64,000 nt of DNA from Clostridia bacterium (GTDB lineage Bacteria > Bacillota > Clostridia > Oscillospirales > CAG-382): contig JAFQHL010000064.1 of the NCBI GenBank assembly GCA_017397955.1, positions 4,384 through 68,383 on the forward strand, written 5' to 3'. Made by a program: the position numbers and the translations under genes. The notes beneath the pieces are model-generated. The model did not search any database. It saw only the letters and a list, made by a program, of their open reading frames with translations, and was not told the origin of the DNA. Positions 55-63,581 of this stretch are shown piece after piece (the first letter of the stretch is position 1; each line of letters begins with the position of its first letter).

Positions 55-600
55 GGATTTGTAGCGTCGTGTCCATGATGACGAGCGGCGATTGTTGTAG
101 GGACGGGCGCCCTCGACCGTCCGCCACTCTGCGCATATATGTAGCGCCGTGTCCGTGGTGATGGGTGACGGTACGCACCACCGTAGGGCGGGGGTTTATC
201 TCCCGCCGCCGCGTGGCAACACGGCATGCCGCACCGTTCTGTGGACGAACCGCGGCGTTTTGTACCGTAAGGTATATTGCACCGCACAGGGTTTTATTTA
301 TTTGCCGCGTTTGCGATAATGGGCGGCGGTACGCTCGTAGTCCGCCACGCGACGCATATATGTAACGCCGTGTCCGTGGTGATGGGTGACGGTACGCACC
401 ACCGTAGGGCGGGGGTTTATCTCCCGCCGCCGCGTGGCAACACGGCATGCCGCACCGTTCTGTGGACGAATCGCGGCGTTTTGTACCGTAAGGTATATTG
501 CACCGCACAGGGTTTTATTTATTTGCCGCGTTTGCGATAATAGGCGGCGGTACGCTCGTAGGGACAAACCGTCCTCGACCGTCCGCCACGCGACGGGGAT
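55..600. repeat. Mosaic GC-rich hairpin repeat, locus 1: forward GTAGGG-hairpin-CGCC heads at 98, 183, 404 and 558, plus a 221-bp tandem duplication
   Basis: GTAGGGCGGGGGTTTATCTCCCGCCGCC occurs at 183-210 and 404-431. Segments 134-340 and 355-561 are near-identical (3 mismatches) with a 221-bp period. The locus lies downstream of the tmcAL 3' end and may continue past the window edge. Confidence 0.85.
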
Positions 601-668
601 GAGCGAAGATGTGTCTGTAAAAATGCGTGGCGGCACATTATAGAGGGCGGTGTCACCTGCATGAGACA

Positions 669-3217: not shown

Positions 3218-3679
3218 TGTGGGACAAACCGTCCTCCACCGTCCGACTAATAACGGATATATGAAACGCCGTGTCCGTACGGTCGCGCGTGATGATGGGC
3301 GACAATTGTTGTAGGGGAGGGGTCTCCCCTCCCGCCACGCGGCGCATGTGTGAAACGCCGTGTCTGTGATAACAGGCGGCGGCGTGTTCGTAGGGCGGGG
3401 GTTTATCTCCCGCCGCCACGCGGCGCATATATGAAACCTGATGTGGTGTAAAATATGTTGCGGGAAAGATTGTTACGGTTTATCTGCAAAACGCGGCGTT
3501 TTACCGAATTGTCACGGGGCGGCGGGAGATAAACCCCCGCCCTACGAGGATGTGTTCCGTTGCCGCGTAGACGGTTGCGTTGATGCGGTGCGAGGCGTGG
3601 CGGCGGGAGATAAACTGTTTGCCCTACGGTGGTGTGTTCCGTTGCTGCGCAGACGGTTACGCGGTTTTTTGTGCGTAAC
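3218..3679. repeat. Mosaic hairpin repeat, locus 2: 3 forward units, 80-nt core, 2 inverted units
   Basis: Forward heads at 3218, 3311 and 3390. Core at 3438-3517. Inverted heads at 3518 and 3600. No RBS-supported ORF. Confidence 0.85.
3390..3545. mobile_element. Minimal MITE-like unit: 28-bp perfect terminal inverted repeats flanking a linker stub plus core
   Basis: 3390-3417 GTAGGGCGGGGGTTTATCTCCCGCCGCC is the exact reverse complement of 3518-3545. A homologous 155-bp unit lies at 10213-10367. Confidence 0.4.
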
Positions 3680-4633: not shown

Positions 4634-4683
4634 GGATAGGGGCATCCCTCCCTACGAGCATGCCGTTACCGTTATCACGGACG
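4634..4683. repeat. Solo inverted unit of the mosaic hairpin repeat family (degenerate)
   Basis: GGATAGGGGCATCCCTCCCTAC followed by GAGCATGCCGTTACCGTTATCACGGACG resembles the reverse complement of head plus linker. Confidence 0.55.
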
Positions 4684-4786
4684 GGGGCCCGTTTATCGTT
4701 TTTGCATATACGGAGGTGTTAGGTATTGACTTTTTGCGTTTCCGGATGTAAAATGTAGCAGAAATAATTATGTATAAGGAGTTTTT

Positions 4787-5959: not shown

Positions 5960-6991
5960 TTATGCAAAAATTTCTTTAATTATCTCTTCAGTTACCTCGT
6001 CAACCTTGGAAAAATCCATAGTGGGGGTATATATGTCCTCAAGCGCGGCGTGGGCTGTACGACTTTCTGCCATAGCAAGCCGCGCTTCCTCAAGCAGTGC
6101 CGCCACGGTCTTGCAAATAAACCTAAGCTTTCCTCTTACTGCGGAAAGCTTTTCTTTGTCCAAAAAACGCTCCATATTTACGGGCTTGCTTTGGGGTGCC
6201 GCTTCTGCGGCGAACAAAACGCCCGTGTCCTCCAACAGCAGACCGCCAAGCTTGCAAGGGGATAAAGCCGTGGGAGACACCTTTACTCTAAGCCCTCTGC
6301 CGTAGGCGGCGGCAAGCATCTGCTCTAAAAACAAATGAGCTATTCCGTAACTGTCTTTCAAGGAGATTGTTCTGCTTTCGCCGTAGCGTGGCGCAGTTAC
6401 CAATCCTTTACTGCAAAAAGCTTGGCGCGGACGCACGGTAGCGCAAAACTCGCCGCCGGCAGGCGCACTTTGCTTTATAAGCCGCACTGCCGCGGCGTTC
6501 ATTTTATCCCACAGCACCGCACCTTCCAAAAGCTTTTGTTTTTCTTCTTCCAGACAGCCGACCGCCGCAAACAGGCTGTAAGCCCTGTTCATTGCCGCCT
6601 CTTTTTTCTCTGTCAGCGCCTTTACGGTACCGCGTTTTGCCCGTAGCTGTTTTGCATCCCAAAACTCTCCCAGATTAACAAGTCGGTCTGCCACGCCGGG
6701 CAATCGGGGGCTTAGTTCGTGCGGGGCGGTGCCGTCGGCAACGGCGGCTCCTCTTTGGGGCAAAAACACACCGTCCAGACTTTCGGGGTCAGAGGCGCAG
6801 TATATCCTTTCTACCGCTTCGCCGCGCTTTTCCGCCTCTGCCGCCACTTTTTTCATCAGCGCAGACTTACCGCAGCCACAGCCGCCCTTAAGTATATAAA
6901 GGTGCCTTGCTTCTCCAAGTGCGCCTTCAAAATAGCTTACAAATCCCCGTTCTCCGTTAGCGCCGCCGAAGTATCCTGTGGAAATTGCCAT
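5960..6991 (-). CDS. Uncharacterised P-loop NTPase
   Basis: 343 aa. Walker A motif GGCGCGKS near the N-terminus. No further recognisable domain. Confidence 0.7.
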   Translation of the reverse strand: MAISTGYFGGANGERGFVSYFEGALGEARHLYILKGGCGCGKSALMKKVAAEAEKRGEAVERIYCASDPESLDGVFLPQRGAAVADGTAPHELSPRLPGVADRLVNLGEFWDAKQLRAKRGTVKALTEKKEAAMNRAYSLFAAVGCLEEEKQKLLEGAVLWDKMNAAAVRLIKQSAPAGGEFCATVRPRQAFCSKGLVTAPRYGESRTISLKDSYGIAHLFLEQMLAAAYGRGLRVKVSPTALSPCKLGGLLLEDTGVLFAAEAAPQSKPVNMERFLDKEKLSAVRGKLRFICKTVAALLEEARLAMAESRTAHAALEDIYTPTMDFSKVDEVTEEIIKEIFA

Positions 6992-7889: not shown

Positions 7890-9710
7890 TTGATACGTAA
7901 CGATTTAAGAAATGTTGCAATTATCGCCCACGTTGACCACGGTAAGACCACCTTGGTTGACGGTATGCTTAAATTCAGCGGCACCTTCAGAGAGAATCAG
8001 GACGTGGAGGAGAGGGTTATGGACTCTAACGCTCTTGAGCGTGAGCGCGGCATAACCATCCTTGCAAAAAACACCTCTGCTTTCTATAAGGGGGTAAAAA
8101 TAAATATAGTAGACACTCCCGGCCACGCAGACTTTGGCGGCGAGGTGGAGCGTATACTTAAAATGGTTAACGGTGTACTTCTTTTGGTAGATGCTGCAGA
8201 AGGCCCCATGCCCCAGACTCGTTTTGTACTTCAAAAGGCTATAGAGCTTGGTCATCCCATTATAGTGGTGGTTAACAAGATAGACCGTCCCGATGCCCGC
8301 GTTTATGAGATAGGCGACGAGGTGCTGGAGTTGCTTCTTGACCTTGATGCCAACGATGACCAGCTGGAAAGCCCCGTGCTCTTCTGCTCTGCCCGTAACC
8401 TTACCGCAAGCCTTTCCCCCGACCATCAGGGCGAGGACTTGTCACCTCTCTTTGATACTATCCTTTCCCATATCCCCGCGCCCGAGGGTGACGAAAGCGG
8501 CGAGGCGCAGATGCTTGTTTCCGCCGTTGATTACAACGACTATGTGGGCAAAATGGCAATAGGGCGCATAGAACGCGGCTCTCTTAAACTTAAACAGGAT
8601 GTTTTGGTTTGTGATTATCATAACGACGTTGCCCCTTACAAGGGCAAAATAAGCGCCATGTATCAGATAGAAGGCCTTGCCAGAAAAGCGGTTGAAAGCG
8701 CGTCTGTGGGCGATATCGTCTGCGTATCCGGTCTTGAAGATGTAAACATAGGCAACACGCTTTGCTCTATGGAAGGCGCAGACCCCCTTCCTTTTGTGAA
8801 GATAGGCGAGCCTACCATTGAAATGACCTTCTCCGTTAACACGGGTCCTTTTGCAGGCAGAGAGGGTAAGTATGTAACCACCCGTCATATAAGAGATTAT
8901 CTGTTTAAGGAAGCTATGAAGGATATGTCCCTCCGCGTTAGCGAGACGGACAGTGCCGATAGCTATAACGTGGCAGGCAGAGGCGAAATGCACCTTTCCA
9001 TACTTATGGAAAATATGCGCCGCGCGGGCTATGAATTTATGGTAAGCACCCCCCGTATCATATACAAAGAGATAGACGGTGTGCTTTGCGAGCCTGTTGA
9101 CCGCGCCTTTATGGACGTTCCGCAGGACTACGTAAGTGCGGTTATGGAAAAGATGGGCTACCGCAAGGGCGAGCTGGTTGAAATGACCCCCAAGGGCAGC
9201 AGAATGCACCTTGAGTTCCTTATACCCACCCGCGGACTTTTTGGCTATAAGACAGAGTTTTTGACCGATACCCGCGGCGAGGGCGTGCTTAACACCGTGT
9301 TTGAAAGCTATGAGCCTCAAAAGGGCGAGATACAAAAACGCTTTACAGGCTCTCTTATCGCCTACGAGGACGGCGAAGCTACCTCCTACGGCTTGTTTAA
9401 TGCTCAGGACAGAGGGCAGATGTTTATCGACCCCGCCACTAAGGTTTATACGGGTATGATAGTAGGTATGTCCCCCAAGGGTGAGGATATTGTGGTTAAC
9501 GTGTGCAAGAAGAAGCACCTTACCGCCATAAGAAGCGCAGGCGCGGACGAGGCACTACGCCTTGTTACCCCCAAGAAGATGAGCCTTGAGGAAGCTATTG
9601 AGTTTATAGCAGATGACGAGCTTATAGAAATAACCCCCAAGTCCATTCGTCTCAGAAAGCGTACCCTTGATAATTCCCTCAGAATGAAGGAAAAAGCAAA
9701 GCTTAAATAA
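7890..9710 (+). CDS. typA: Translational GTPase TypA/BipA
   Basis: 606 aa. [14 protein letters not shown]1 motif, [15 protein letters not shown] start, so the start position is moderately uncertain. Confidence 0.95.
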
Positions 9711-9718
9711 CAACAAAA

Positions 9719-9757
9719 AGATTCGGCAGAGGTTTTAACCTCTGCCGAATTTGTTTT
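9719..9757 (+). terminator. Rho-independent terminator of typA
   Basis: 12-bp stem ATTCGGCAGAGG/CCTCTGCCGAAT followed by TTGTTTT. Confidence 0.9.
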
Positions 9758-9805: not shown

Positions 9806-10607
9806 CCCCCCCGCAAACCGTCCTCGACCGTCCGCCGCGGCGCATATACGAAACGCCGCGTCCGTGATGATGGTAACGGCACGCCGTAGGGACAAACCGT
9901 CCTCGACCGTCCGCCACACAACGAATATACGAAACGCCGCGTCCGTGATGATGGGTAACGGCACGCCGTAGGGACAAACCGTCCTCGACCGTCCGCCGCA
10001 AAACACATATACGAAACGCCGTGTCCGTGATGATGGCAACGGCACGCCGTAGGGACAAACCGTCCTCGACCGTCCGCCGCAAAACGCATATACGAAACGC
10101 CGTGTCCGTGATGATGGCAACGGCACGCCGTAGGGACAAACCGTCCTCGACCGTCCGCCGCAAAACACATATACGAAACGCCGCGTCCGTGATGATGGGT
10201 AACGGTACGCTCGTAGGGCGGGGGTTTATCTCCCGCCGCCACGCGGCGCATACATGAAACCTGATGTGGTGTAAAATATGTTACGAGAAAGATTGTTACG
10301 GTTTATCTACAAACGCGGCGTTTTACCAAATTGTCACGGTGCGGCGGGAGATAAACCTCCGCCCTACAACGGTGTGTTCCGTTGCCGCGCAGACGGTTGC
10401 GTTGGTGCGATGCGCCGCGTGGCGGCGGGAGATAAACCCCCGCCCTACGGTGGTGTGTGTGTTCCGTTGCCGCGCAGACGGTTGCGTTGGTGCGATGCGC
10501 CGCGTGGCGGCGGGAGATAAACCCCCGCCCTACGATTATGCGTTCCGTTGTCGCGTAGACGGGTGATGATTGTATATGAAAAGGGCGGGAGATAAACCCC
10601 GCCCTTT
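9806..10607. repeat. Mosaic hairpin repeat, locus 3 (largest): six forward 81-82-bp units, 79-nt core, three inverted units plus a terminal hairpin
   Basis: Forward heads at 9806, 9886, 9968, 10049, 10130 and 10213. Core at 10261-10339. Inverted heads at 10341, 10421 and 10506. Head-like hairpin at 10581-10606. Confidence 0.9.
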
Positions 10608-10621: not shown

Positions 10622-12007
10622 TTATTTCTTTTTGCTGAAAAGACCGATAATCTTGTCGATAATGCCCTTATTCTTTTCCTCCAGCTGAGAGGGGAAGGCC
10701 TCTTTCCAAGCGATTTGCTGTTGGCTGTTTTGCAATTGCATATCTCTGTAATCCTGATAAGGATTTTCGGTAACAACCTTGGACATAAGGTTGGATTCAC
10801 CTGCGCTGAGAAGCAATCTGTTTTCGCCGCAGAAGAATGCAACACCGTCTGCGCCCTTAACCTTCTTGTCAAGCGTTACAAACTCAAAAACATCGCTAAA
10901 GGAGAACATACCAATGTTTACGTCTTCACCGTATTCCGCATAAATAGCATCAACATCGGTAAAGGCAGAGATATAGCAATATTTGCGGTTTTCGGTAACC
11001 AAAAAGTCAAATGTGCCTTCTTCCAGCGCGGTATCTGCAACGGTAAGCTTTTCGCCGCCCAAAACGCCGAGGGATGCGGCAGATGCGCCTGCAACCAGCT
11101 TAGCCTCGGAGGTGTAATAAAGCTTATCCTTGGGATATGTACCCTTCCCCTTGGGAACAAAGGGAAGCAATATCATGGTAGAAGAAACAGCCTGTCTTAG
11201 GTTAACCATAACCTCGCCGCCGTAGTTGATAAGGTGGTCGCTGCTTCTGCCTTCGCTAAGGCAAAGACAAGCCAGAACAGAGCGCGCAACGGGTGCGGCA
11301 TAGTTAGGTGTAGCTACATCCACCAAGTCGCGGCAGTTAAAGGCAACATTTATGTCGTTGGTATGGGGGTTAAGACGCACCATCTTAATACCCATATTGA
11401 TAAACTCAGCCAGCTTTTGTGTTAAAGCGTTTGCGGGGAAAGAAGCGACGGAGCACTTGAAGCAGTCAGCCTTGGGCATAGCTTCCACAGCATAGTTTTC
11501 CGCGGTGAAAAGCCAAGGTAAGCCTGCCTTGTCAAGGAAGGGATAGTCGCCGTTTACAACGTCCGCCTTAAGGTAATAAACGGTGCTTGCTGCGGCAAAC
11601 GCATTCTTAACGCTGTCAAGAATCGCATCCTGCTCTGCCTGTTCGGCAAGCAGTTCTTCTTCATACTTTGCGCCAAGACGAAGCTTAAGCTGTTCAATAA
11701 TAGGGTCAAGCGCAAGGAACATGGAATCCTTTATGCCTGCGGCAGGACCAAAATGCTCAATAGCCTTGTAAGCAACAATAAGGCTGTCTACGCCGCAAAC
11801 GGAAATGTTATGCAAATAGTCTTCCTCTCTTATAAAGTGGAGTGAAACGCCCAAAGATTCAAATGAAGTAAAGTTGGGCACAAGCCTTTTAACGGCGTTT
11901 TGACCCTCTTCTACGTTGTGGGGGGTTCTGAAATGTCTGGGATTGTGTCTTTGAATATCACGGAACAAACGCTTTGTTAAAAGCTTGTCGTCTATAGTGT
12001 GGGGCAT
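10622..12007 (-). CDS. Hypothetical protein (possible tandem SseB-like domains)
   Basis: ORF 10622..12028 trimmed to the ATG at 12007, which follows AAGGAGAG. It has its own consensus promoter. The domain guess is weak. Confidence 0.6.
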   Translation of the reverse strand: MPHTIDDKLLTKRLFRDIQRHNPRHFRTPHNVEEGQNAVKRLVPNFTSFESLGVSLHFIREEDYLHNISVCGVDSLIVAYKAIEHFGPAAGIKDSMFLALDPIIEQLKLRLGAKYEEELLAEQAEQDAILDSVKNAFAAASTVYYLKADVVNGDYPFLDKAGLPWLFTAENYAVEAMPKADCFKCSVASFPANALTQKLAEFINMGIKMVRLNPHTNDINVAFNCRDLVDVATPNYAAPVARSVLACLCLSEGRSSDHLINYGGEVMVNLRQAVSSTMILLPFVPKGKGTYPKDKLYYTSEAKLVAGASAASLGVLGGEKLTVADTALEEGTFDFLVTENRKYCYISAFTDVDAIYAEYGEDVNIGMFSFSDVFEFVTLDKKVKGADGVAFFCGENRLLLSAGESNLMSKVVTENPYQDYRDMQLQNSQQQIAWKEAFPSQLEEKNKGIIDKIIGLFSKKK

Positions 12008-29865: not shown

Positions 29866-29960
29866 AAACCCCCGCCGACACGCGGCACATACATGGAACG
29901 CCGTGTCCGTGATGATGGGTAACGGCACGCCGTAGGGCGGGGGTTTATCTCCCGCCGCTA
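29866..29960. repeat. Solo unit of the mosaic hairpin repeat family (truncated inverted head + linker + forward head)
   Basis: AAAACCCCCGCCGAC, then linker ACGCGGCACATACATGGAACGCCGTGTCCGTGATGATGGGTAACGGCACGCC, then GTAGGGCGGGGGTTTATCTCCCGCCGC. Confidence 0.85.
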
Positions 29961-29978
29961 TGCGGGCGCATTTTTTTA

Positions 29979-37613: not shown

Positions 37614-37682
37614 CAAAAGACCGCAAAAAAAGAACTCCCGCAAAGGGGAGCCTTTTTTTCGTGGTGCGGATGACAGGACTTG
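37614..37682 (-). repeat. Duplicate of the tRNA-Leu 3' end (21 nt) plus its terminator (69 bp, 3 mismatches versus 37762-37830)
   Basis: CAAAAGACCGCAAAAAAAGAACTCCCGCAAAGGGGAGCCTTTTTTTCGTGGTGCGGATGACAGGACTTG matches 37762-37830. The two copies are a direct repeat with a 148-bp period. Confidence 0.9.
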
Positions 37683-37754: not shown

Positions 37755-37764
37755 CTCGTATCAA

Positions 37765-37809
37765 AAGACCACAAAAAAAGAACTCCCGCAAAGGGGAGCC
37801 CTTTTTTTG
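37765..37809 (-). terminator. Terminator immediately after tRNA-Leu
   Basis: CTCCC/GGGAG stem extended by A-run/T-run pairing. On the minus strand a T-run follows the hairpin. Confidence 0.75.
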
Positions 37810-37892
37810 TGGTGCGGATGACAGGACTTGAACCTGCAAGCCGAAGCACTGGTTTCTAAGACCAGCATGTCTGCCAATTCCATCACATCCGC
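37810..37892 (-). tRNA. tRNA-Leu (anticodon UAG), class II with long variable arm, encoded CCA
   Basis: Reverse complement: GCGGATG..CTGGT-CTTAGAA-ACCAG..GTGCTTCGGCTTGC..AGGTTCAAGTCCT..CATCCGC-A-CCA. The cloverleaf was checked by eye. Confidence 0.9.
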
Positions 37893-37916: not shown

Positions 37917-37945
37917 AGTATAACACACGGGGCAACCAATGTCAA
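37917..37945 (-). promoter_or_regulatory. Consensus sigma-A promoter for tRNA-Leu
   Basis: Minus strand reads TTGACA (37945-37940), 17 nt, TATACT (37922-37917), about 25 nt upstream of the tRNA 5' end. Confidence 0.65.
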
Positions 37946-38110
37946 TAGAAAACAAAAAAAGAACAAAAACCACTGCTAAAAATGTGAAAATCAAAGAAGA
38001 CTGAACGCACACGGTAAAGCGAGCCGCGTTTTTAAAAGATTTGCCTGTATATTTTATGCGGCGACTGAGCAAATTATGTTCAAACGCAATTTGAAAGCAG
38101 GAAAAAAACT

Positions 38111-42204: not shown

Positions 42205-45200
42205 ATGAAAAGAATAACAGCATTTTTGCTTTGTCTTGCTTTTGTGTTGGGGCTTTGCGGCGTTTCTGCAAGTGCTGCTCCTGCAAAAGAGCTTACCACA
42301 CAAACAAAAGAAGTTTATGAAAGTAAGTATTTTTATACCGACGAGGACGGACTGCCCGAGTCTGCTCATAACTACAGCAGCAGTATGGAGCAATCCTGGT
42401 ATGTCATCCGTGAGGGTGCTTCCGGCGTCAGCGTAACCTTTTCCGATGATACGGAAACAGAAAGCGGCTATGACAAAATAACCATTTATAACGCTAACGG
42501 CGAAGAGCAGGGTGAGTACAGCGGTACTGCATTGGCAGGTCAAACCATCACTGTTGAAGGCGATACCCTGCAGATACGCCTTACCTCTGACGGTTCCGTT
42601 GTTCGCTACGGTTTCAGGGTTACAGACATATCCTATACCATCTCAGGAGAGGAAGACTCTGAAGAAAGCTCCGAGGCGCCCCGTCGTGACGGCTATTATT
42701 ACACCGATGCAGACGGTATGCCCGAATCCGCCCATAACTACGAAAACTATAGCGACGAATCTTGGTATGTTGTCCGCGAAGGTGCAATAAGTGTTTCCCT
42801 TACCTTCTCTGAGGAAACAAGAGTAGAAAACGGCTATGACAATATTGAAATTTACAACGGCGCCGATGTGCTTATTGATACTTATACCGGAACAGAGCTT
42901 GCAGGGCAGACTATTACCATAGAAGGTGATACGGTTCGCATTCGTCTTACCTCTGACGGTTCTTATACCCATTACGGCTTTGCCGTTACGGGCATAAGCT
43001 TTGTCGGCAGCTATACAACCTATACTGCTCATATATACCGCAGTGCAGAGGATAGGGTGACCGTTGAAATAGCATTGCCCGCAGGCGTTGACAGCGGCGT
43101 TCTCTATCTTAATACTACAGACAATCTTACCATAAGTCAGGAGCCTGATTGTGTAATTTTTGACCGCGTAGATACAAACGGTACTTATTCCGTAAGCTAT
43201 GAAGAAGGCAGGGGCTATAAGTTAGAGTTTTCTGTTGACTCCGCCATACCCGAAGGCACTACCGCGTTTAAGGCACAGTACAGCGTTTCCGCCGATTATG
43301 AGCTTTCCACCGCAGACGTTTTTGTTCGCGAGTGGAGTTTGAGCAACAATAACGAGCTTGTTGCAGACCAAAGCTTTGGCGATATAAGAAAGTGTGTTTG
43401 CTCCACCGTTATAATTACCGTTTTAGACTGGGACGGCACAGAGCTGGGTACCTTTAATGCACCCAGAGGAATTGTTCTTGATTCTCTGCCCTTTAATCCT
43501 CAGCGTGACGGACGTGAGTTTATCGGTTGGAGTGTGGATTCACTTTGCTTTATGTATGATACTACCGTAAACGCAGTGTATGCAGCTCCTTACTACACTG
43601 TTGTGTTTAAGGACTACGACGGCACGGTGCTTGATACCGTTACCGTGGAAGAAGGCGGCAGTGCAAGCACAAACGTAGTGCCCGAAAGATTCGGCTTTGA
43701 GTTTATCGGCTGGTCCGAAAACATCGACTGTGTAATGGATGACACCACCGCGATTGCCACTTACGAAACTAAGTTCCTTGTTGGTGATGCCAACGGTGAC
43801 GGCTACGTTAACAGCCTTGATGCCGCGACCATCCTCAGACACGATGCACAGCTTATAATACTTGAAGGTATTGCACGCCTTTGCGCGGACACTAACTGGA
43901 ACGGCGAAATAAACAGCCTTGATGCGGCGTTGCTTTTAAGATACGATGCCGATTTGATTGACCATCTTCCCGACTGTCCTCTTTACGGTCTTACCGCAGA
44001 TGGTAAGTTCTTCCGTGCAGACGTAACCCAAACAATAACCTTTACCGTAAGCACCGGCGTTCCTTATGAAAACATAAAGCTTTATGACCAGTTCGGCAAC
44101 CTTCTTGGTGTTATGAGCGATGACGGCACCGGTGCAGACCGCGTGGCAAACGACGGTGTTCACACGCTTAAGACAGATGTGCTTTACTATTCAAGCGGCG
44201 CATCTACCCAGGTTGAATTTTACTGCCAAAGCGGTAACGATACCAGCTTGCCCCTTACACTTAACTTCCTTTCCGGTGAGCAAGGCTCGCTTTCCGGCGT
44301 GGTTCGTTTGGCTTCCGACCGTGCAACTGCCGTTAACGGCGCTTGCGTAAAGGTTTATAACGGCGCGGCACTTTACACCACCGTTTACACCAACGAAAAC
44401 GGCCAGTACAGCTTTACTCTTCCCAACGGCAACTACAAGGTAGTGGTTTCCGCAAACGGTTATATTGATTTTGTTGCTTTTGCATCCATAGAAAACGGCT
44501 ATGACACTTATCTTGAAACATTCCTTATGGTTGAGAACACAGGCGTTTCCGAAGGTTCTGCCACAGGCGTTATCAAGAACTCTCTTACCGGTATCGGCGA
44601 GGGTGGCGTAAGCATTTCCTTTGTAAAGAATTGGAGCAATTATGCGCCTAACGCAAGGGTTATCGGCACCGCGCTTACCGACGAGGACGGTCAGTACAGC
44701 GTAGAGCTTCCTTTGGGCAATTACACCGCAGTTCTTAACAAAAACGGCTTTACAACCGCATACTTTAACGTAGTGGTTTGCGAAGGAACCTTGGCTAATC
44801 AAGACGGCGTTATTACCCCCGTTATAGAAGACGGCGAGCTGGGTGACAGCTATCTTATAACCCTTACTTGGGACGAAAACCCCAGAGATTTGGACTCCCA
44901 CGTACGCGGACCTCTTTCCGGCGGCGGCAGTTTCCATGTTTACTTCTCCGACAAGACGCAGGATGACGGAGATAGACAGATTTGTAATTTGGACTACGAC
45001 GATGTAAACAGCTACGGTCCCGAGCATATCACCCTTGTACCTACAACCGAGGGCGCATACTACTATTACATCTACAAATATTCCGGCACAGGTTCTCTTG
45101 CAACCTCCGGTGCCCGCGTAACCATAGAGCGCGGCAACCGTTTGATTGCTACATTTAACGTGCCCACCGACCAAGGCGAGGGCAGATATTGGAATATATT

Positions 45201-48689: not shown

Positions 48690-48737
48690 CGTCCATACTA
48701 AGTTGCGGACAAACAAAGGTCCGACGGAACAATTAAA

Positions 48738-48816
48738 AATCGGGGTGCTTGGTGCGGGTTGCATCAGGCTGAGAAATACCCATTGAACCTGAACGGATAA
48801 TGCCGGCGTAGGGATA
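48738..48816 (+). promoter_or_regulatory. TPP (THI-box) riboswitch aptamer
   Basis: GGGGTGC...CTGAGAAATACCC...GAACCTGAACGGATAATGCCGGCGTAGGGA matches the conserved THI element. The downstream gene is thiT. Confidence 0.9.
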
Positions 48817-48852
48817 TAATGCAGGGGTTTTGCCCCTTTGCTTGTGCTTTTT

Positions 48853-59165: not shown

Positions 59166-59613
59166 TACCTTTTTGCAAAAAAATTTAATTTTTCTGCGAT
59201 TTTCTTCGTTTTCCTGCGTTTTTGTTGCAAAACGGCGTTTGATAAATAAGTTTTTTGCTTGCCACAATTTCACCATAAAACGAAGCGCTTCTCGTACCAC
59301 ACTGAATTGTAGGACGCGGCATCCTCTATACTCCAATGCCAAACGACAAACCAAAGGGCAAAAGCCGCGAAAACCGCAATTCTTGCCAGTTGTTTTTTTG
59401 CACAAATCGTTGACCGTTATTTTGTTCACTCCTACAAAAATGCGTGTTCACCAAAAGGTTAACAGTTGATTTTTTAGGCTTTGAATGATATAATGAACTT
59501 GCGAAATATGATTCGTTCGCAAAGCGCAAAGCGAATAAAAGGAGGGATGCTTATGAAATGAGGTTGTATTTATGAAAAAAGGCAACACTTATGAGAAAGA
59601 AAGGAGCGATAGT

Positions 59614-60783
59614 ATGAGAAACGTAAATAAACTTTTATCCCTTTTGCTGGCAATGCTTATGCTTTGCCAAGGGATAGTGCTTGTTTCCGCCGAGGAGAGA
59701 ACGGAAGCACTCGAATGGACTTATGACAACAGTATGCTTATAAAAATCAACACCGAGGAGGCTAAAATCTTTACCCCCGAGGATTTTCCCGATACAAACT
59801 GCACAGAGGTTTTGACCACGGAAAAGCTACCCACCGAAACAGGCTACAGCTACGAGCTTATGCTTATCTTTGATACCGCCGCAGAGGGCTTTGATTGGCA
59901 AGCCATAGCAGACGGACTTTTGGAAAGAGGAATAGCCGTGGAGGTCGAGCGTAACATATATGCCGAGGATTATAACAGCAAGATTTGTAAAGTGACCCTA
60001 ACACACAATGATTTGCTTGTGCCGATTGGCGGTACAGCAAGCTTGGGAATAGAAAGCGTTGATTTTGCTGAGTTTGATTACAGCGTGTACGATACAAAAG
60101 CTGTTTTGTTCACAGTAGACCCCGATATTATAGACGAAACGGCTTTTACCGCAGAAAGCTTTTCAGAAACAGGGATAGTTGAATTTTATCCGCAAATTGA
60201 ATGGACGCAAGAGCTTGGTTGGGGCGACGAGCTGATACTGATTAACCGTCCTGAGGAATACTTGGGCAAAGCAAGCGATAGCCACAGCTATTACGGTGCG
60301 GTGGATTGGTATGGTCTGGGAGACAAAGCTTGTGTAACCGCAATTAACGCATTGACAGAAATGGAAGGAATCCTTTCCGCGACCATAATCATATATGACC
60401 GCAAAGAAGGTCTTTGCGATACCGAAATATGGGGAACAAAGACAGATATTGTTTCCGTAAGTCTTAGCGGAGGAACACAAGACCCCAACAACGGAAATGT
60501 TATAAACCAAAACGCGGAAATAAAAGGCAAGGCAGAGGGCGTTACCGAGGTTTATGTTACAAGACGAAACGCCGTTACTGCAAGCTGTAACGTGACCGTG
60601 TATTTGGCTGATGCAAATAATGACGGCGAATGTGATTCTTTAGATGCGGCTTTGGTGCTGAAATACGATGCGGAAATGGCAGAAGCAACCGAAGAATTGC
60701 TTTTGTGCGATATGAACAGTGATGGTATTGTCAACAGCCTTGATGCGGCGTTTATTTTAAGATACGATGCGGAGCTGGAGTAA
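59614..60783 (+). CDS. Secreted dockerin-containing protein, unknown N-terminal module (paralog of 62421-63581)
   Basis: Start set at the ATG at 59614 by analogy with its paralogs (AAAGGAGCGATAGT-ATG). Signal peptide. C-terminal type-I-like dockerin (DANNDGECDSLDAA / DMNSDGIVNSLDAA). Confidence 0.75.
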   Translation: MRNVNKLLSLLLAMLMLCQGIVLVSAEERTEALEWTYDNSMLIKINTEEAKIFTPEDFPDTNCTEVLTTEKLPTETGYSYELMLIFDTAAEGFDWQAIADGLLERGIAVEVERNIYAEDYNSKICKVTLTHNDLLVPIGGTASLGIESVDFAEFDYSVYDTKAVLFTVDPDIIDETAFTAESFSETGIVEFYPQIEWTQELGWGDELILINRPEEYLGKASDSHSYYGAVDWYGLGDKACVTAINALTEMEGILSATIIIYDRKEGLCDTEIWGTKTDIVSVSLSGGTQDPNNGNVINQNAEIKGKAEGVTEVYVTRRNAVTASCNVTVYLADANNDGECDSLDAALVLKYDAEMAEATEELLLCDMNSDGIVNSLDAAFILRYDAELE

Positions 60784-60873
60784 ATAGCTAAGGCATTTAA
60801 AAAGGAGCGATAGTATGAGAAACGTAAAGAAGCTTTTGTCCCTTTTGCTGGCAATGCTTGTACTTTGCCAAGG
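60733..60873 (+). repeat. 141-bp junction repeat (dockerin 3' end + intergenic + RBS + signal-peptide 5' end), copy 1
   Basis: Identical to 62339-62479 except for 1 nt (offset 1606 bp). Confidence 0.9.
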
Positions 60874-62389
60874 AGCTCTGATTGTTTCCGCCGAGGAAAG
60901 CTGCGAGGATAGTACAGAAGCGCCCGAAACAAGCTACAGCGGCATCTGCGGTGAAAACCTTACTTGGAGTCTTGATGTGGAAACAGGGGTTCTCGATATA
61001 ACCGGCACGGGAGAAATGTACAATCAAGCGCCATGGCATAACTACAATAAGTATATCAAAACCGTAAATATTTCAAACGGCGTTACTTTTGTTGGGGCGA
61101 GGGCATTCAATGAATGTTCTTTCCTCAAAAGCATCTCCATTCCAGACAGTGTTACCCGTATTGCCATCTCTGCATTCTCCGGTTGTCATTCCCTTACAAA
61201 CGTTACCTTAGGACGTGGCATTACTACTATTGCGCCGTATACATTTTATGGGTGTACCTCACTTACAAGTATTACAATACCTGACAGCGTTATTTCCATT
61301 CGTGGCGAGGCGTTCTCCGGTTGCCATTCTCTTGTAGACGTCACAATTCCAGACAGTGTTACTCGTATTGCCATCTCTGCATTCTCCGGTTGTCATTCCC
61401 TTACAAATGTTACCTTAGGACGTGGCATTACTACTATTGAGCCGTATACATTTTATGGGTGTACCTCACTTACAAGTATTACGATACCTGACAGCGTTAT
61501 TTCCATTGGTGGCGAGGCGTTCTCCGGTTGCCATTCTCTTGTAGGCGTCACAATTCCAGACAGTGTTACTTCTATTGGAGACGCTTCGTTCTTCCGCTGC
61601 ATCTCCCTTACAGAAATTATAATACCCGACAGCGTTACTCATATTGGGGCCGAAGCGTTCTCCATGTGCTATGACCTTGCAAGTGTTACCATAGGAGCCG
61701 ATGTTACTTCTATCGGAGTTTCTGCATTCTACGGCTCTACCAACCTTTCAAGCGTGTATATTGATTCCTGTACGATTGCTGCCGATTTGAACTCTCATTC
61801 CGCTTGCGGAAATTTGGTTAACTACGCTGAATCAGTAATGTTTGGAGAGGCTGTTGCTGATATAACGGATTACGTAAAAAACGGTAACCCCTATGCCGAA
61901 AGCCTTGATTATAACGGCAAAACCTATTATTCCTACAGTAACCACGAACACGCTTGGGAAGAATATATCGTGGAGGTAAACGGATGCGCCAATCCCGGCT
62001 TTGATGGGTACAAATGTTCCGAGTGTTATGCGCTAAAAGGGGATTTTGTTACAATTCCTCATGATTGTTCTGCAAAGTGGTACTCCAATAGCAATAATCA
62101 TTGGCACTTATGCTCCGTTTGCGGCGACAGAACAGACACAACCGAACACGCCTTTAGCGGCGATACCGACAAAGATTGTAACGTATGCGGCGAACTGCGT
62201 AATGTTTTCGGTGACGTGAATAATGATAGCGCAATAAACAGTCTTGATGCGGCGCTTGTGCTTAAATATGATTCCGACCTAATAGACGAAACACAGCTTG
62301 CGTTGGATAACGCCGATATGAACCGCGACGGCGAGATAAACAGCCTTGATGCGGCGTTTATTTTAAGATACGATGCGGAGCTGGAGTAA
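60815..62389 (+). CDS. Secreted BspA-type leucine-rich-repeat protein with a Cys-rich region and C-terminal dockerin
   Basis: 524 aa. Repeated IPDSVT.I...AF.GC.SLT..T LRR_5-like units. Dockerin DVNNDSAINSLDAA / DMNRDGEINSLDAA. Confidence 0.8.
   Translation: MRNVKKLLSLLLAMLVLCQGALIVSAEESCEDSTEAPETSYSGICGENLTWSLDVETGVLDITGTGEMYNQAPWHNYNKYIKTVNISNGVTFVGARAFNECSFLKSISIPDSVTRIAISAFSGCHSLTNVTLGRGITTIAPYTFYGCTSLTSITIPDSVISIRGEAFSGCHSLVDVTIPDSVTRIAISAFSGCHSLTNVTLGRGITTIEPYTFYGCTSLTSITIPDSVISIGGEAFSGCHSLVGVTIPDSVTSIGDASFFRCISLTEIIIPDSVTHIGAEAFSMCYDLASVTIGADVTSIGVSAFYGSTNLSSVYIDSCTIAADLNSHSACGNLVNYAESVMFGEAVADITDYVKNGNPYAESLDYNGKTYYSYSNHEHAWEEYIVEVNGCANPGFDGYKCSECYALKGDFVTIPHDCSAKWYSNSNNHWHLCSVCGDRTDTTEHAFSGDTDKDCNVCGELRNVFGDVNNDSAINSLDAALVLKYDSDLIDETQLALDNADMNRDGEINSLDAAFILRYDAELE
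61139..61552 (+). repeat. In-frame 207-bp tandem duplication (3 LRR units each) inside the LRR gene
   Basis: 61139-61345 and 61346-61552 are near-identical. A third, diverged copy starts at 61553. Confidence 0.9.
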
Positions 62390-62479
62390 ATAGCTAAGGC
62401 ATTTAAAAAGGAGCGATAGCATGAGAAACGTAAAGAAGCTTTTGTCCCTTTTGCTGGCAATGCTTGTACTTTGCCAAGG
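62339..62479 (+). repeat. 141-bp junction repeat, copy 2
   Basis: See 60733-60873. Confidence 0.9.
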
Positions 62480-63581
62480 TACCCTGCTTGTTTTTGCGGA
62501 AGAAACAGCAGAGACTGCGGAATGGACTTATGACAACAGTATGCTTGTAAAAATCAACACCGAGGAGGCTAAAATCTTCACTCCTGAGGATTTTCCCGAT
62601 ACAAACTGCACAGAGGTTTTGACCACGGAAAAGCTACCCACCGAAACAGGCTACAGCTACGAGCTTATGCTTATCTTTGATACCTCAAACGACTTCGATT
62701 GGCAATCCACCGCAGATGCGCTTTTGGCAACCCAGACGATTTGCAACGCATCTCGCAACGTATACGCCGAAGATTACAATATGAAGCACTGCACTTTCAC
62801 GCTTACAGCTGAAGAGCTACACGTGCCTGTCGGGGGCAAGGCTTGGTTGCAAATCAAGGACGAAAAATACACCGGTTATTCACATAATATGTGGAACAAA
62901 AAAGCAATTGCGTTTACCGTTGACCCCGATATTATAGACGAAGATGCGTTTACATGGGGATATTTCAAGAGCTTTGGGGTTGATTCATTCTTTCCTGATA
63001 TTGAGGGAATTGGTGATAGTCTGTGGGAGGTAGAACATTTAATATATTCTTGCCCTTCGGAATACAGAGATACAAAAAGCGAAATCCATCGTTATTACGG
63101 AATGGTGGAGTATAGCTATAACGGATACGAAGATACTTTAAAAGCCGCAAATACTTTGTCGCATGTTGAAGGAATCACATCAGTAAAAGTGTATGCCTTT
63201 TCTGCCCCTACAGGTACAATAACTTCTGAACATTGGCAGGTTGATTCAGAAAGCGTATCACTTTTATTATCCGGCGGTATAGATCACGATTATCCGGGAG
63301 GACCATACAATCAAACGGCAGAAATAACGGGCATAAATGTGGGGTCGGCGGTTGTATCCGTTTCAAAAAGGCTTGTAGCAAGCTGTAATGTGACCGTGTA
63401 TTTGGCTGATGCAAATAATGACGGCGAATGCGACTCTTTAGATGCGGCTTTGGTGCTGAAATACGATGCGGAAATGGCAGAAGCAACCGAAGAATTGCTT
63501 TTGTGCGATATGAACAGTGATGGTATTGTCAACAGCCTTGATGCGGCGTTTATTTTAAGATACGATGCGGAACTGGAGTGA
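62421..63581 (+). CDS. Secreted dockerin-containing protein, unknown N-terminal module (paralog of 59614-60783)
   Basis: 386 aa. Shares a ~165-nt 5' block (62520-62684 versus 59713-59877) and a 204-nt 3' dockerin block with its paralog. The central ~700 nt has diverged. Confidence 0.8.
   Translation: MRNVKKLLSLLLAMLVLCQGTLLVFAEETAETAEWTYDNSMLVKINTEEAKIFTPEDFPDTNCTEVLTTEKLPTETGYSYELMLIFDTSNDFDWQSTADALLATQTICNASRNVYAEDYNMKHCTFTLTAEELHVPVGGKAWLQIKDEKYTGYSHNMWNKKAIAFTVDPDIIDEDAFTWGYFKSFGVDSFFPDIEGIGDSLWEVEHLIYSCPSEYRDTKSEIHRYYGMVEYSYNGYEDTLKAANTLSHVEGITSVKVYAFSAPTGTITSEHWQVDSESVSLLLSGGIDHDYPGGPYNQTAEITGINVGSAVVSVSKRLVASCNVTVYLADANNDGECDSLDAALVLKYDAEMAEATEELLLCDMNSDGIVNSLDAAFILRYDAELE

Follow-up and report, generated by a model that had tools for sequence, protein, structure and literature searches.

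Repetitive extragenic palindromes (REPs) of the GTAG superfamily, including the REPs and bacterial interspersed mosaic elements (BIMEs) of Escherichia coli, are GC-rich hairpins of 20-30 nt whose 5' foot carries GTAG; their preferred sites are intergenic regions of the convergent and tandem kind, downstream of genes, some of their families span several species, and the tandem reiteration of GTAG-tagged REPs together with flanking DNA has been described (PMC3733652). The survey of these elements covers Proteobacteria, Cyanobacteria, Chloroflexi, and the PVC (Planctomycetes-Verrucomicrobia-Chlamydiae) group, with Firmicutes and Clostridia not among them (PMC3733652). The corresponding REP-associated tyrosine transposases (RAYTs) include TnpA_REP of E. 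coli, which cleaves and rejoins single-stranded head hairpins with a 5' GTAG, and the subclass 2.4 tnpAREP genes, for which in-frame REPs and 'double-foot' REPs (GTAG...CCAC) are already on record (PMC6006769). In the REPINs (REP doublets forming hairpins) of Pseudomonas fluorescens, two inverted REPs build a larger hairpin that behaves as the replicating unit, and their transposase partner occurs in single copy and is passed on mostly by vertical inheritance, both being points of likeness with the system described here (PMC3116915). RAYTs in Clostridia have been noted in the literature (PMC5581495). REP/REPIN-RAYT systems have nevertheless been studied almost wholly in Proteobacteria. Here we analyze a repeat array in a 64,000-nt stretch of contig JAFQHL010000064.1 from a Clostridia bacterium (hereafter the window), located in the 911-bp gap between the typA gene and a convergent open reading frame (ORF) for 461 amino acids (aa). 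We read this locus as a cluster of GTAG-superfamily REP elements organized like a BIME/REPIN cluster, with a probability of about 0.78. Uncultured gut Clostridia carry abundant GTAG REPs and two RAYT lineages, and the locus is an ordinary example of such REPs in a bacterium where they had not been described.

The gap is bordered by typA on the plus strand (7890-9710; Pfam GTP_EFTU and BipA_C) and by the 461-aa ORF on the minus strand (10622-12007; no Pfam or NCBIfam match), and the intrinsic terminator of typA (9721-9750, plus strand; 13-bp stem and T run) precedes the array. The left arm, all on the plus strand, starts with a first unit (9806-9885) made of a 5'-truncated head A and a linker, followed by four full tandem units of 82, 81, 81, and 83 nt (9886-10212), each composed of head A and a linker of ~55 nt; head A, GTAGGGACAAACCGTCCTCGACCGTCC, was typed against intact relatives as a degenerate REP of the '..GGCG-YCCT-CGAC..' type. 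The arm ends with the forward head B (10213-10237), the 25-mer GTAGGGCGGGGGTTTATCTCCCGCC, which is a GTAG-tagged REP hairpin with an 8-bp stem, one G.T pair, and the loop TTTAT. An AT-richer core without a significant fold (10252-10340) forms the spacer of a central inverted doublet, whose second member is an inverted head B found as a motif match with one mismatch (10343-10367, minus strand). The right arm (10368-10579, minus strand) consists of inverted ~85-nt units; head B recurs there in inverted form at 10424-10448 and 10509-10533, and the inverse linkers have diverged. The core is bracketed by a 40-nt perfect inverted repeat, 10212-10251 with 10410-10449, the forward head B lying in its left arm. 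All five or six heads of the left arm are forward and all three of the right arm are inverted, so that only the central pair is inverted.

Tandem Repeats Finder delineates a left-arm array at 9814-10218 (period 81, 5.0 copies, 93% matches) and a right-arm array at 10341-10562 (period 85, 2.7 copies, 87% matches). Together with nine copies of head B in the window, against 0.00 expected, these arrays establish that the repeat architecture between convergent genes proposed in the first-pass annotation is real. Its count of six forward units is corrected to five full periods plus head B; the 'head' placed at 9806 is 5'-truncated and has no GTAGGG. The entire region is predicted to fold into one long hairpin (-209.9 kcal/mol versus -165.6 +/- 5.6 for shuffled sequences, z = -7.85). 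Together with the 40-nt inverted repeat and the recurrence of the central composite, this hairpin gives the layout of a REPIN; however, the spacer is a ~100-nt core, unusually long and embedded in tandem arrays, whereas in other metagenome-assembled genomes (MAGs) it is typically 28 nt. The right arm is followed by a tagless, head-B-like hairpin (10580-10607) with A and T runs on either side, as described in the first pass; 15 nt separate it from the stop codon at the end of the 10622-12007 gene. This hairpin is probably the terminator of that gene, possibly a bidirectional one, and appears to be a REP head recruited to that role.

In favor of an array that encodes a repeat protein, extended ORFs run through it (minus strand, 161 and 240 aa; plus strand, 100 aa), public assemblies call a 134-aa gene here, and a length of exactly 81 nt, divisible by 3, is shared by two of the four full units. 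The likelihood of such a protein is next to nil: the unit lengths of 82, 81, 81, and 83 nt change the frame from unit to unit (phases 0,1,1,1,0), two overlapping ORFs read the repeats in different frames, no Pfam family is found above threshold, and the same DNA is present in either orientation and also where nothing is encoded. The frame shifts and the lack of a Pfam family agree with the original impression that the array has no credible coding sequence. The public calls of 134 aa (11672-12076 in L116; stretches from related genomes are given by such handles) and of 123 aa (11125-11496 in L145 and 298-669 in the window) lie wholly inside REP arrays and are almost certainly spurious, the translated heads giving recurrent peptides such as VGRGFISR. 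A CRISPR array was ruled out, as the would-be spacers, i.e., the linkers, are repeats with 93% identity.

The heads are recognizable as tagged hairpins well beyond this locus. In 792 kb of sequence examined with ten control hexamers, 260 of 506 GTAGGG occurrences (51%) are directly followed by an 8-bp hairpin, compared with 0-1% for the controls; ~135 of the tagged hairpins are head B by construction, and the signal is still strong without them. In the same sequence, GTAG occupies the 5' foot of 251 out of 699 GC-rich hairpins, the next commonest 4-mer accounting for 56. Described REPs have GT[AG]G 0-2 nt 5' of the hairpin foot; the GTAG tag directly at the foot here supports the earlier assignment to a REP/BIME-like extragenic family, and head B and the heads at 3311 and 97 are short (20-40 nt) GC-rich imperfect palindromes. 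Only these three are good hairpins among the window heads; the claim of self-complementary heads stands for them and falls for head A of the tandem units, which has a stem of only 4 bp, the 81-nt unit folding no better than shuffled sequences (z = +1.26). Among 62 distinct heads, the GTAG strand shows 473 Watson-Crick pairs, 28 G.T pairs, and one A.C mismatch, and the ratio of 28 to 1 among the mismatches identifies it as the folded strand. An alignment of 43 distinct heads contains double changes in six of the eight stem pairs and yields a covariation score of 0.859, where shuffled sets give 0.161 and slid partners no more than 0.198, consistent with the first-pass proposal of compensatory stems and selection on a hairpin. 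For head A (9886-9917; further copies at 559 and 3219), the opposite strand pairs better, as GTGGC-GGACGG...TTGTCC-CTAC with six pairs, two of them G.T, and the head may function as a 'double-foot' REP read from its GTGG side. For the linker/pre-head module, RNAalifold predicts no consensus pairs; one anecdotal compensatory change, CCGT/ACGG to CTGT/ACAG, is seen in it at 3366-3378.

The G.U-compatible mismatches on the GTAG strand (28 versus 1) would also fit an array that acts mainly as RNA, its GUAG-strand hairpins stabilizing the 3' ends of read-through transcripts, terminating them, or forming long double-stranded or antisense RNA. At the main locus, both arms have their GTAG strand in the same sense as the gene next to them, the last hairpin with its T run is terminator-like, and REPs are reported to act as RNA elements in other bacteria (PMC3733652). 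However, G.T pairs stabilize single-stranded DNA hairpins too, the tandem unit folds like shuffles, and the linkers have no consensus structure. The orientation of heads relative to neighboring genes shows no bias (21 versus 19, and 18 versus 19, counts confounded by doublets and by gene-strand bias), and the right arm of the locus at 3218-3679 is antisense to its downstream gene. Terminator-like hairpins of both genes precede the array, and promoter-like sites are not enriched in it (1 found versus 1.2 expected), which speaks for an element acting at the level of DNA, for the most part selfish or neutral, rather than for an RNA gene. In the Rfam search that the first-pass annotation had proposed, the window gave only a thiamine pyrophosphate (TPP) riboswitch and tRNA, with a best E-value of 0.034 in the array region, far below the gathering score; for the array, no family emerged at gathering or lenient thresholds, nor did one in eight related loci. 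On balance, the RNA alternative seems to us quite improbable.

The same modules recur in the window, where ~20 heads occupy five extragenic loci, each located after the 3' end of a gene; the four further loci had already been noticed in the first pass, and all of them are present. The nine copies of head B, detected with at most one mismatch, include five forward (starting at 183, 404, 3390, 10213, and 29932) and four inverted ones (3521, 10343, 10424, and 10509). The second locus (55-645, plus strand) lies downstream of the 3' end of a minus-strand gene at 669-1793 and carries heads at 97, 183, 404, and 559 and a 221-nt unit present twice; its head at 97 is an intact head of the '..GCGCCCTCGA..' type. 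The third locus (3218-3679), between the ackA terminator and the next gene, combines forward units, head B, core, and inverted heads, and matches the main locus with 80% identity over 451 nt and ~92% in the center. Two solitary units complete the set: an inverted one with a degenerate head and a linker (4634-4690, minus strand) and a forward one with a linker and head B directly after a terminator (29866-29965, plus strand). The core had been taken as unique to the main locus, which it is not: it recurs at 3435-3513 with ~92% identity and, diverged and inverted, at 208-310 and 429-531, and the whole composite of head B, core, and inverted head B has a second copy at 3389-3640.

This composite at two window loci, with its 40-nt perfect inverted repeats around the core, could be thought to represent a remnant of a MITE (a miniature transposable element with inverted repeats) or of another conventional insertion sequence, or else a purely local satellite, in either case unrelated to RAYTs. 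Such an origin is very improbable, as the inverted repeats are themselves GTAG-tagged hairpins common to ~60 species, no transposase other than RAYTs is associated with them, and no target-site duplication is evident. The spread of the family over five loci in 64 kb and over many genomes shows that it is not a local duplication.

Outside the window, a scan with one genome per species found exact head B in at least 115 stretches from ~60 MAG assemblies, the assemblies being counted by accession prefix. The carriers, labelled Clostridia, Eubacteriales, Oscillospiraceae, or Acutalibacteraceae, derive from gut samples of ruminants, deer, humans, and other sources; viral contigs gave zero matches to head B. 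In the related MAGs the contexts contain many different hairpins, each preceded by GTAGGG. Of 127 head B copies in other MAGs, 75 have an inverted tagged head within 115 nt, with a modal spacer of 28 nt; the usual partner is head C, GTAGGGCGG(G/T)GGCTTGCT(C/G)CCGCC, of which head B is a loop variant. By crude ORF calls in 116 sources, heads lie in 44 convergent, 77 tandem, and 16 divergent spacers; this enrichment downstream of genes and depletion between divergent genes is as described for REPs. In at least 11 species (L008, L010, L017, L021, L023, L034, L047, L085, L087, L108, and L111), a head B/head C doublet is found in a conserved context of a terminator followed by a ~90-nt conserved stretch without Rfam match, which suggests an orthologous REPIN kept across species. 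Other small hairpin repeat families, e.g., ...CCTCCCTTGTGCAAAGGGAGGGGGACCGC..., are interleaved with the REPs in L019, L027, L031, L046, and L021 (2260-2300).

The first-pass annotation had also proposed a look-up of RAYT genes, and such genes with the same heads are present in related genomes (L098, L131, L134, and L136). At the head-bearing locus L098, the gene product is 170 aa long and shows an HUH motif (MPNHVH) and a Y..NP motif, both conserved in its family. The protein scores 22.5 bits against Pfam Y1_Tnp (cut-off 23), and 61.6 bits against the NCBIfam model REP_Tyr_transpos (NF047646), rising to 76.7 bits without the head-encoded peptides (cut-off 80). The only PDB match of its family profile is E. 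coli TnpA_REP (4ER8, E = 4.5e-9), and at least 1898 homologues were found (E <= 0.001), some of them named 'REP element-mobilizing transposase RayT' by JGI. These genes thus show the features of RAYTs, namely the HUH and Y motifs, homology to TnpA_REP, and a location among housekeeping genes. They contain two in-frame heads, one forward and one inverted, one before and the other after the HUH motif, and nearly fixed across the family: the peptide VGRGLAPA, a translation of head C, is invariant in 20 aligned members, and AGASPRPT is the translation of the inverted head. The in-frame heads are borne out by the DNA of four loci. In 120 proteins, the two peptides co-vary (R/R 80, Q/C 5, R/C 2, and Q/R 0), VGQGLAPA occurring with ASPCPT; in L134 the extragenic head is the same variant as the in-gene head, and in L098 head B sits 15 nt past the stop codon. 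A second RAYT lineage, with at least 949 homologues (E <= 1e-10), carries the peptides VGVGA(L/H/F)DDP and GSS(R/K)APTPT. The intact window head at 97 and the degenerate head A are of the head type of this second lineage (VGVGALDDP), and head B is of the VGRGLAPA-lineage type.

These genes resemble TnpA_REP/RAYT subclass 2.4 in holding in-frame REPs, in being flanked by REPs, in having some heads with a 'double foot' (5' GTAG ... CCAC 3', e.g., 10213-10242 in the window), and in having E. coli TnpA_REP as their PDB homologue; the likeness is one of shared features and not a formal assignment, the window locus has no RAYT, and the relatives' in-gene heads differ in their nearly fixed positions on either side of the HUH motif (PMC6006769). 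The repeat family had not been recognized as a described one, and it is indeed uncatalogued for this lineage; however, it falls within the published framework of GTAG REPs and TnpA_REP subclass 2.4 (PMC3733652, PMC6006769). Likewise, the likeness to REP/BIME elements that had been pointed out is substantiated, and a long head-to-tail array of ~80-nt units in the arms is a departure from the GTAG REPs of the survey (PMC3733652). For the BOX/RUP elements, which had been named alongside them, the likeness does not go beyond architecture. BOX elements of Streptococcus pneumoniae are modular extragenic repeats with hairpin potential and a variable number of tandem internal units; they are not known to have a GTAG-tagged hairpin or an associated RAYT.

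RAYT genes of the two lineages are located between the remA-like gene and gyrB, after dprA, and after typA. In L098 (419-931, minus strand) and L136 (4001-4480), the VGRGLAPA-type RAYT gene is a member of the origin cluster dnaA-dnaN-S4-recF-remA-like-[RAYT]-gyrB-gyrA, where it lies 13 nt past the remA-like gene and 46 nt ahead of gyrB in the two MAGs; L136 also has a C-terminal RAYT fragment between gyrB and gyrA (6495-6650). The RAYT neighbors gyrB, remA, and recF are not in the window, and a search for a RAYT of the source MAG among the NCBI homologues, by locus tag IJB65 or a nearby MBQ319... accession, returned none. A position after typA was rejected as a generally conserved site of the second lineage, being found in the sister species only, with the gene elsewhere in two more distant genomes.

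In the sister species, whose typA and pyridoxal phosphate (PLP) enzyme genes are 90% and ~86% identical to those of the window at the nucleotide level, the same interval holds a RAYT. L148 has typA, its terminator, and, 78 nt past the typA stop codon, a full-length 176-aa second-lineage RAYT with the in-gene head GTAGGGGTCGGCGCCCACGACGACCC and its inverse. The RAYT is followed by two 83-nt units of head and linker in forward orientation, then by a forward head resembling head B, by a spacer that contains a terminator hairpin, and by inverted heads of the two types, and the interval closes with the 3' end of the PLP-enzyme gene. Except for the RAYT, which it lacks, the window repeats this module order, with type-A units and head B, both forward, then a spacer and inverted heads. 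In L137-L142, the L148-type RAYT is 5'-truncated exactly at its first in-gene head and stands beside three 83-nt inverted units (two in L138), with a helix-turn-helix (HTH) gene and a 144-aa gene inserted next to it. The truncated gene of L137 (7691-8081) is bordered on each side by a module of 'head plus CGATGATTGTTGCGCATCAC... plus terminator', as if a rearrangement endpoint lay in the REP. The 461-aa ORF of the window (10622-12007) is absent from the sister typA-PLP interval, where the RAYT (L148) or the truncated RAYT and two small genes including an HTH_3 gene (L137) are found; its segment 10685-10916 has an 81% match to a partly retrieved gene (570 aa) with weak DUF805 similarity elsewhere in L148. 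Because a RAYT occupies the same interval in the sister species and the module order is shared, the simplest reading is that the window locus would be the REP flank of a REPtron that has lost, or moved, its transposase gene. Across the sister species this gives a natural series, comprising a REPtron that is intact, a RAYT that is truncated, and an expanded array that has no RAYT.

Several observations weigh against these readings. No RAYT was detected in the window by tblastn with E. coli YafM, the L098 RAYT, and the sister-species RAYT, nor was any found in the ~14 kb of added flanks (4.4 kb on the left and 9.6 kb on the right), the right one of which also contains no new heads. Only the heads are alignable between the window array and the sister clusters, and the REPtron step is therefore proposed from position and module order. 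More generally, relatives outside the window's species share only the head and not the linker or core; nine metagenome matches to the species-specific linker were rejected, all being fortuitous and located in coding DNA of high GC content, and the linker is accordingly limited to the window's species. On the GTAG strand, head A forms a hairpin of poor quality, and most of the left arm may therefore be no RAYT substrate now. The regular alternation of REPs in BIMEs of the E. coli type is not seen, the arms being direct repeats; the cluster works like a BIME and is not a strict BIME. The 99% pairing of the 43 distinct heads is circular, since that set was chosen for pairing, and only the diversity of its compensated pairs is informative. 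Finally, part of the differences in unit number described below could be due to repeat collapse in short-read assemblies.

Taken as a REP cluster, the locus may be accounted for as follows. The heads, with GTAG at the 5' foot, would be the single-stranded DNA form recognized by a RAYT/TnpA_REP transposase of the HUH-Y1 type, and, by homology, the two RAYT lineages would each spread their own head types, two REP types being mixed at this locus. The center, consisting of forward head B, core, and inverted head B, would be a REPIN-like inverted doublet copied as a unit, given that the composite is present twice in the window with ~92% identity in the center. The arms would have arisen from head-plus-linker units multiplied in tandem via slippage or unequal recombination, and the array occupies, as a safe harbor, a transcriptionally insulated gap between two terminators. 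We infer all three of the underlying events, namely RAYT-driven mobilization, RAYT loss at this site, and the mechanism of duplication. This account leaves the REP concept unchanged: it needs no new mechanism, and the in-gene heads are known biology, as in-frame REPs are already described for subclass 2.4.

Tandem units are always 78-85 nt long despite unrelated linkers, as observed in the window (9886-10212), L115 (2685-2908), L035 (1-147), L137 (7430-7624), and L148 (5600-5766); L035 and L115 belong to one other MAG, LOHA04. A comparison of strains had been suggested in the first pass, and assemblies do differ in unit number. L116, from another assembly of the window's species, departs from the window only in having lost exactly one forward unit of 81 nt and one inverted unit of 85 nt; over 270 nt, L117 agrees with the window, while a hybrid unit is seen in L118, and L137 and L138 are one 83-nt unit apart. 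Of six contigs returned for the neighboring gene, five end within the array. These observations fit unequal recombination or slippage. In practical terms, such arrays break short-read assemblies and yield spurious ORF calls, and they could be of use as strain markers because unit number differs between samples.

The recurrence of 78-85-nt units with three unrelated linkers (window, MAG LOHA04, and sister species) would also be expected if the ~80-bp phasing came from protein binding and not from selfish spread, i.e., if the array were a protein-binding or topological element retained by the host, for instance a site for gyrase or a nucleoid protein, as has been proposed for the BIMEs of E. coli, or a replication/transcription buffer separating the convergent genes. 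A REP cluster is present in the typA-PLP interval of three sister lineages, and the potential to form a long hairpin or cruciform is strong (-210 kcal/mol, z = -7.9). Against this, we identified no binding protein or motif, the linkers are not conserved between species, and copy number varies between samples in a manner that fits neutral slippage. We regard host retention as rather unlikely, and it is in any case compatible with the REP explanation and not an alternative origin.

A broader interpretation of the REP cluster, which we put forward tentatively and consider unlikely as a whole, is that it represents a large uncharacterized REP-RAYT system of gut Bacillota, with in-gene heads as the master copy and arrays lasting at former REPtron sites. 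On that interpretation, the in-frame forward and inverted heads may seed and homogenize the extragenic heads, which would then be identical across at least 60 species, the ~80-nt two-part arrays may keep expanding without a local RAYT, and the host might retain them as an insulator/terminator module between convergent genes.

Several other features of the window are unrelated to the array. A 69-nt direct repeat with 96% identity (37614-37682 and 37762-37830, with a third partial copy at 37942-37964) covers the 3' end of a tRNA-Leu gene (37810-37892, minus strand) and its downstream terminator-like hairpin, and may have been left behind by the duplication of an integration site. At 43782-43952, 60606-63571, and 61134-61685 there are segments with dockerin-type repeats and, in an LRR_5 protein, a tandem coding repeat of 207 nt. 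Several dockerin proteins are encoded by the cluster that spans 59572-63581 and extends further, and an assembly of the cellulosome-like kind is therefore probable in this organism. The TPP riboswitch is located at 48731-48832 on the plus strand (Rfam RF00059, 58.3 bits).

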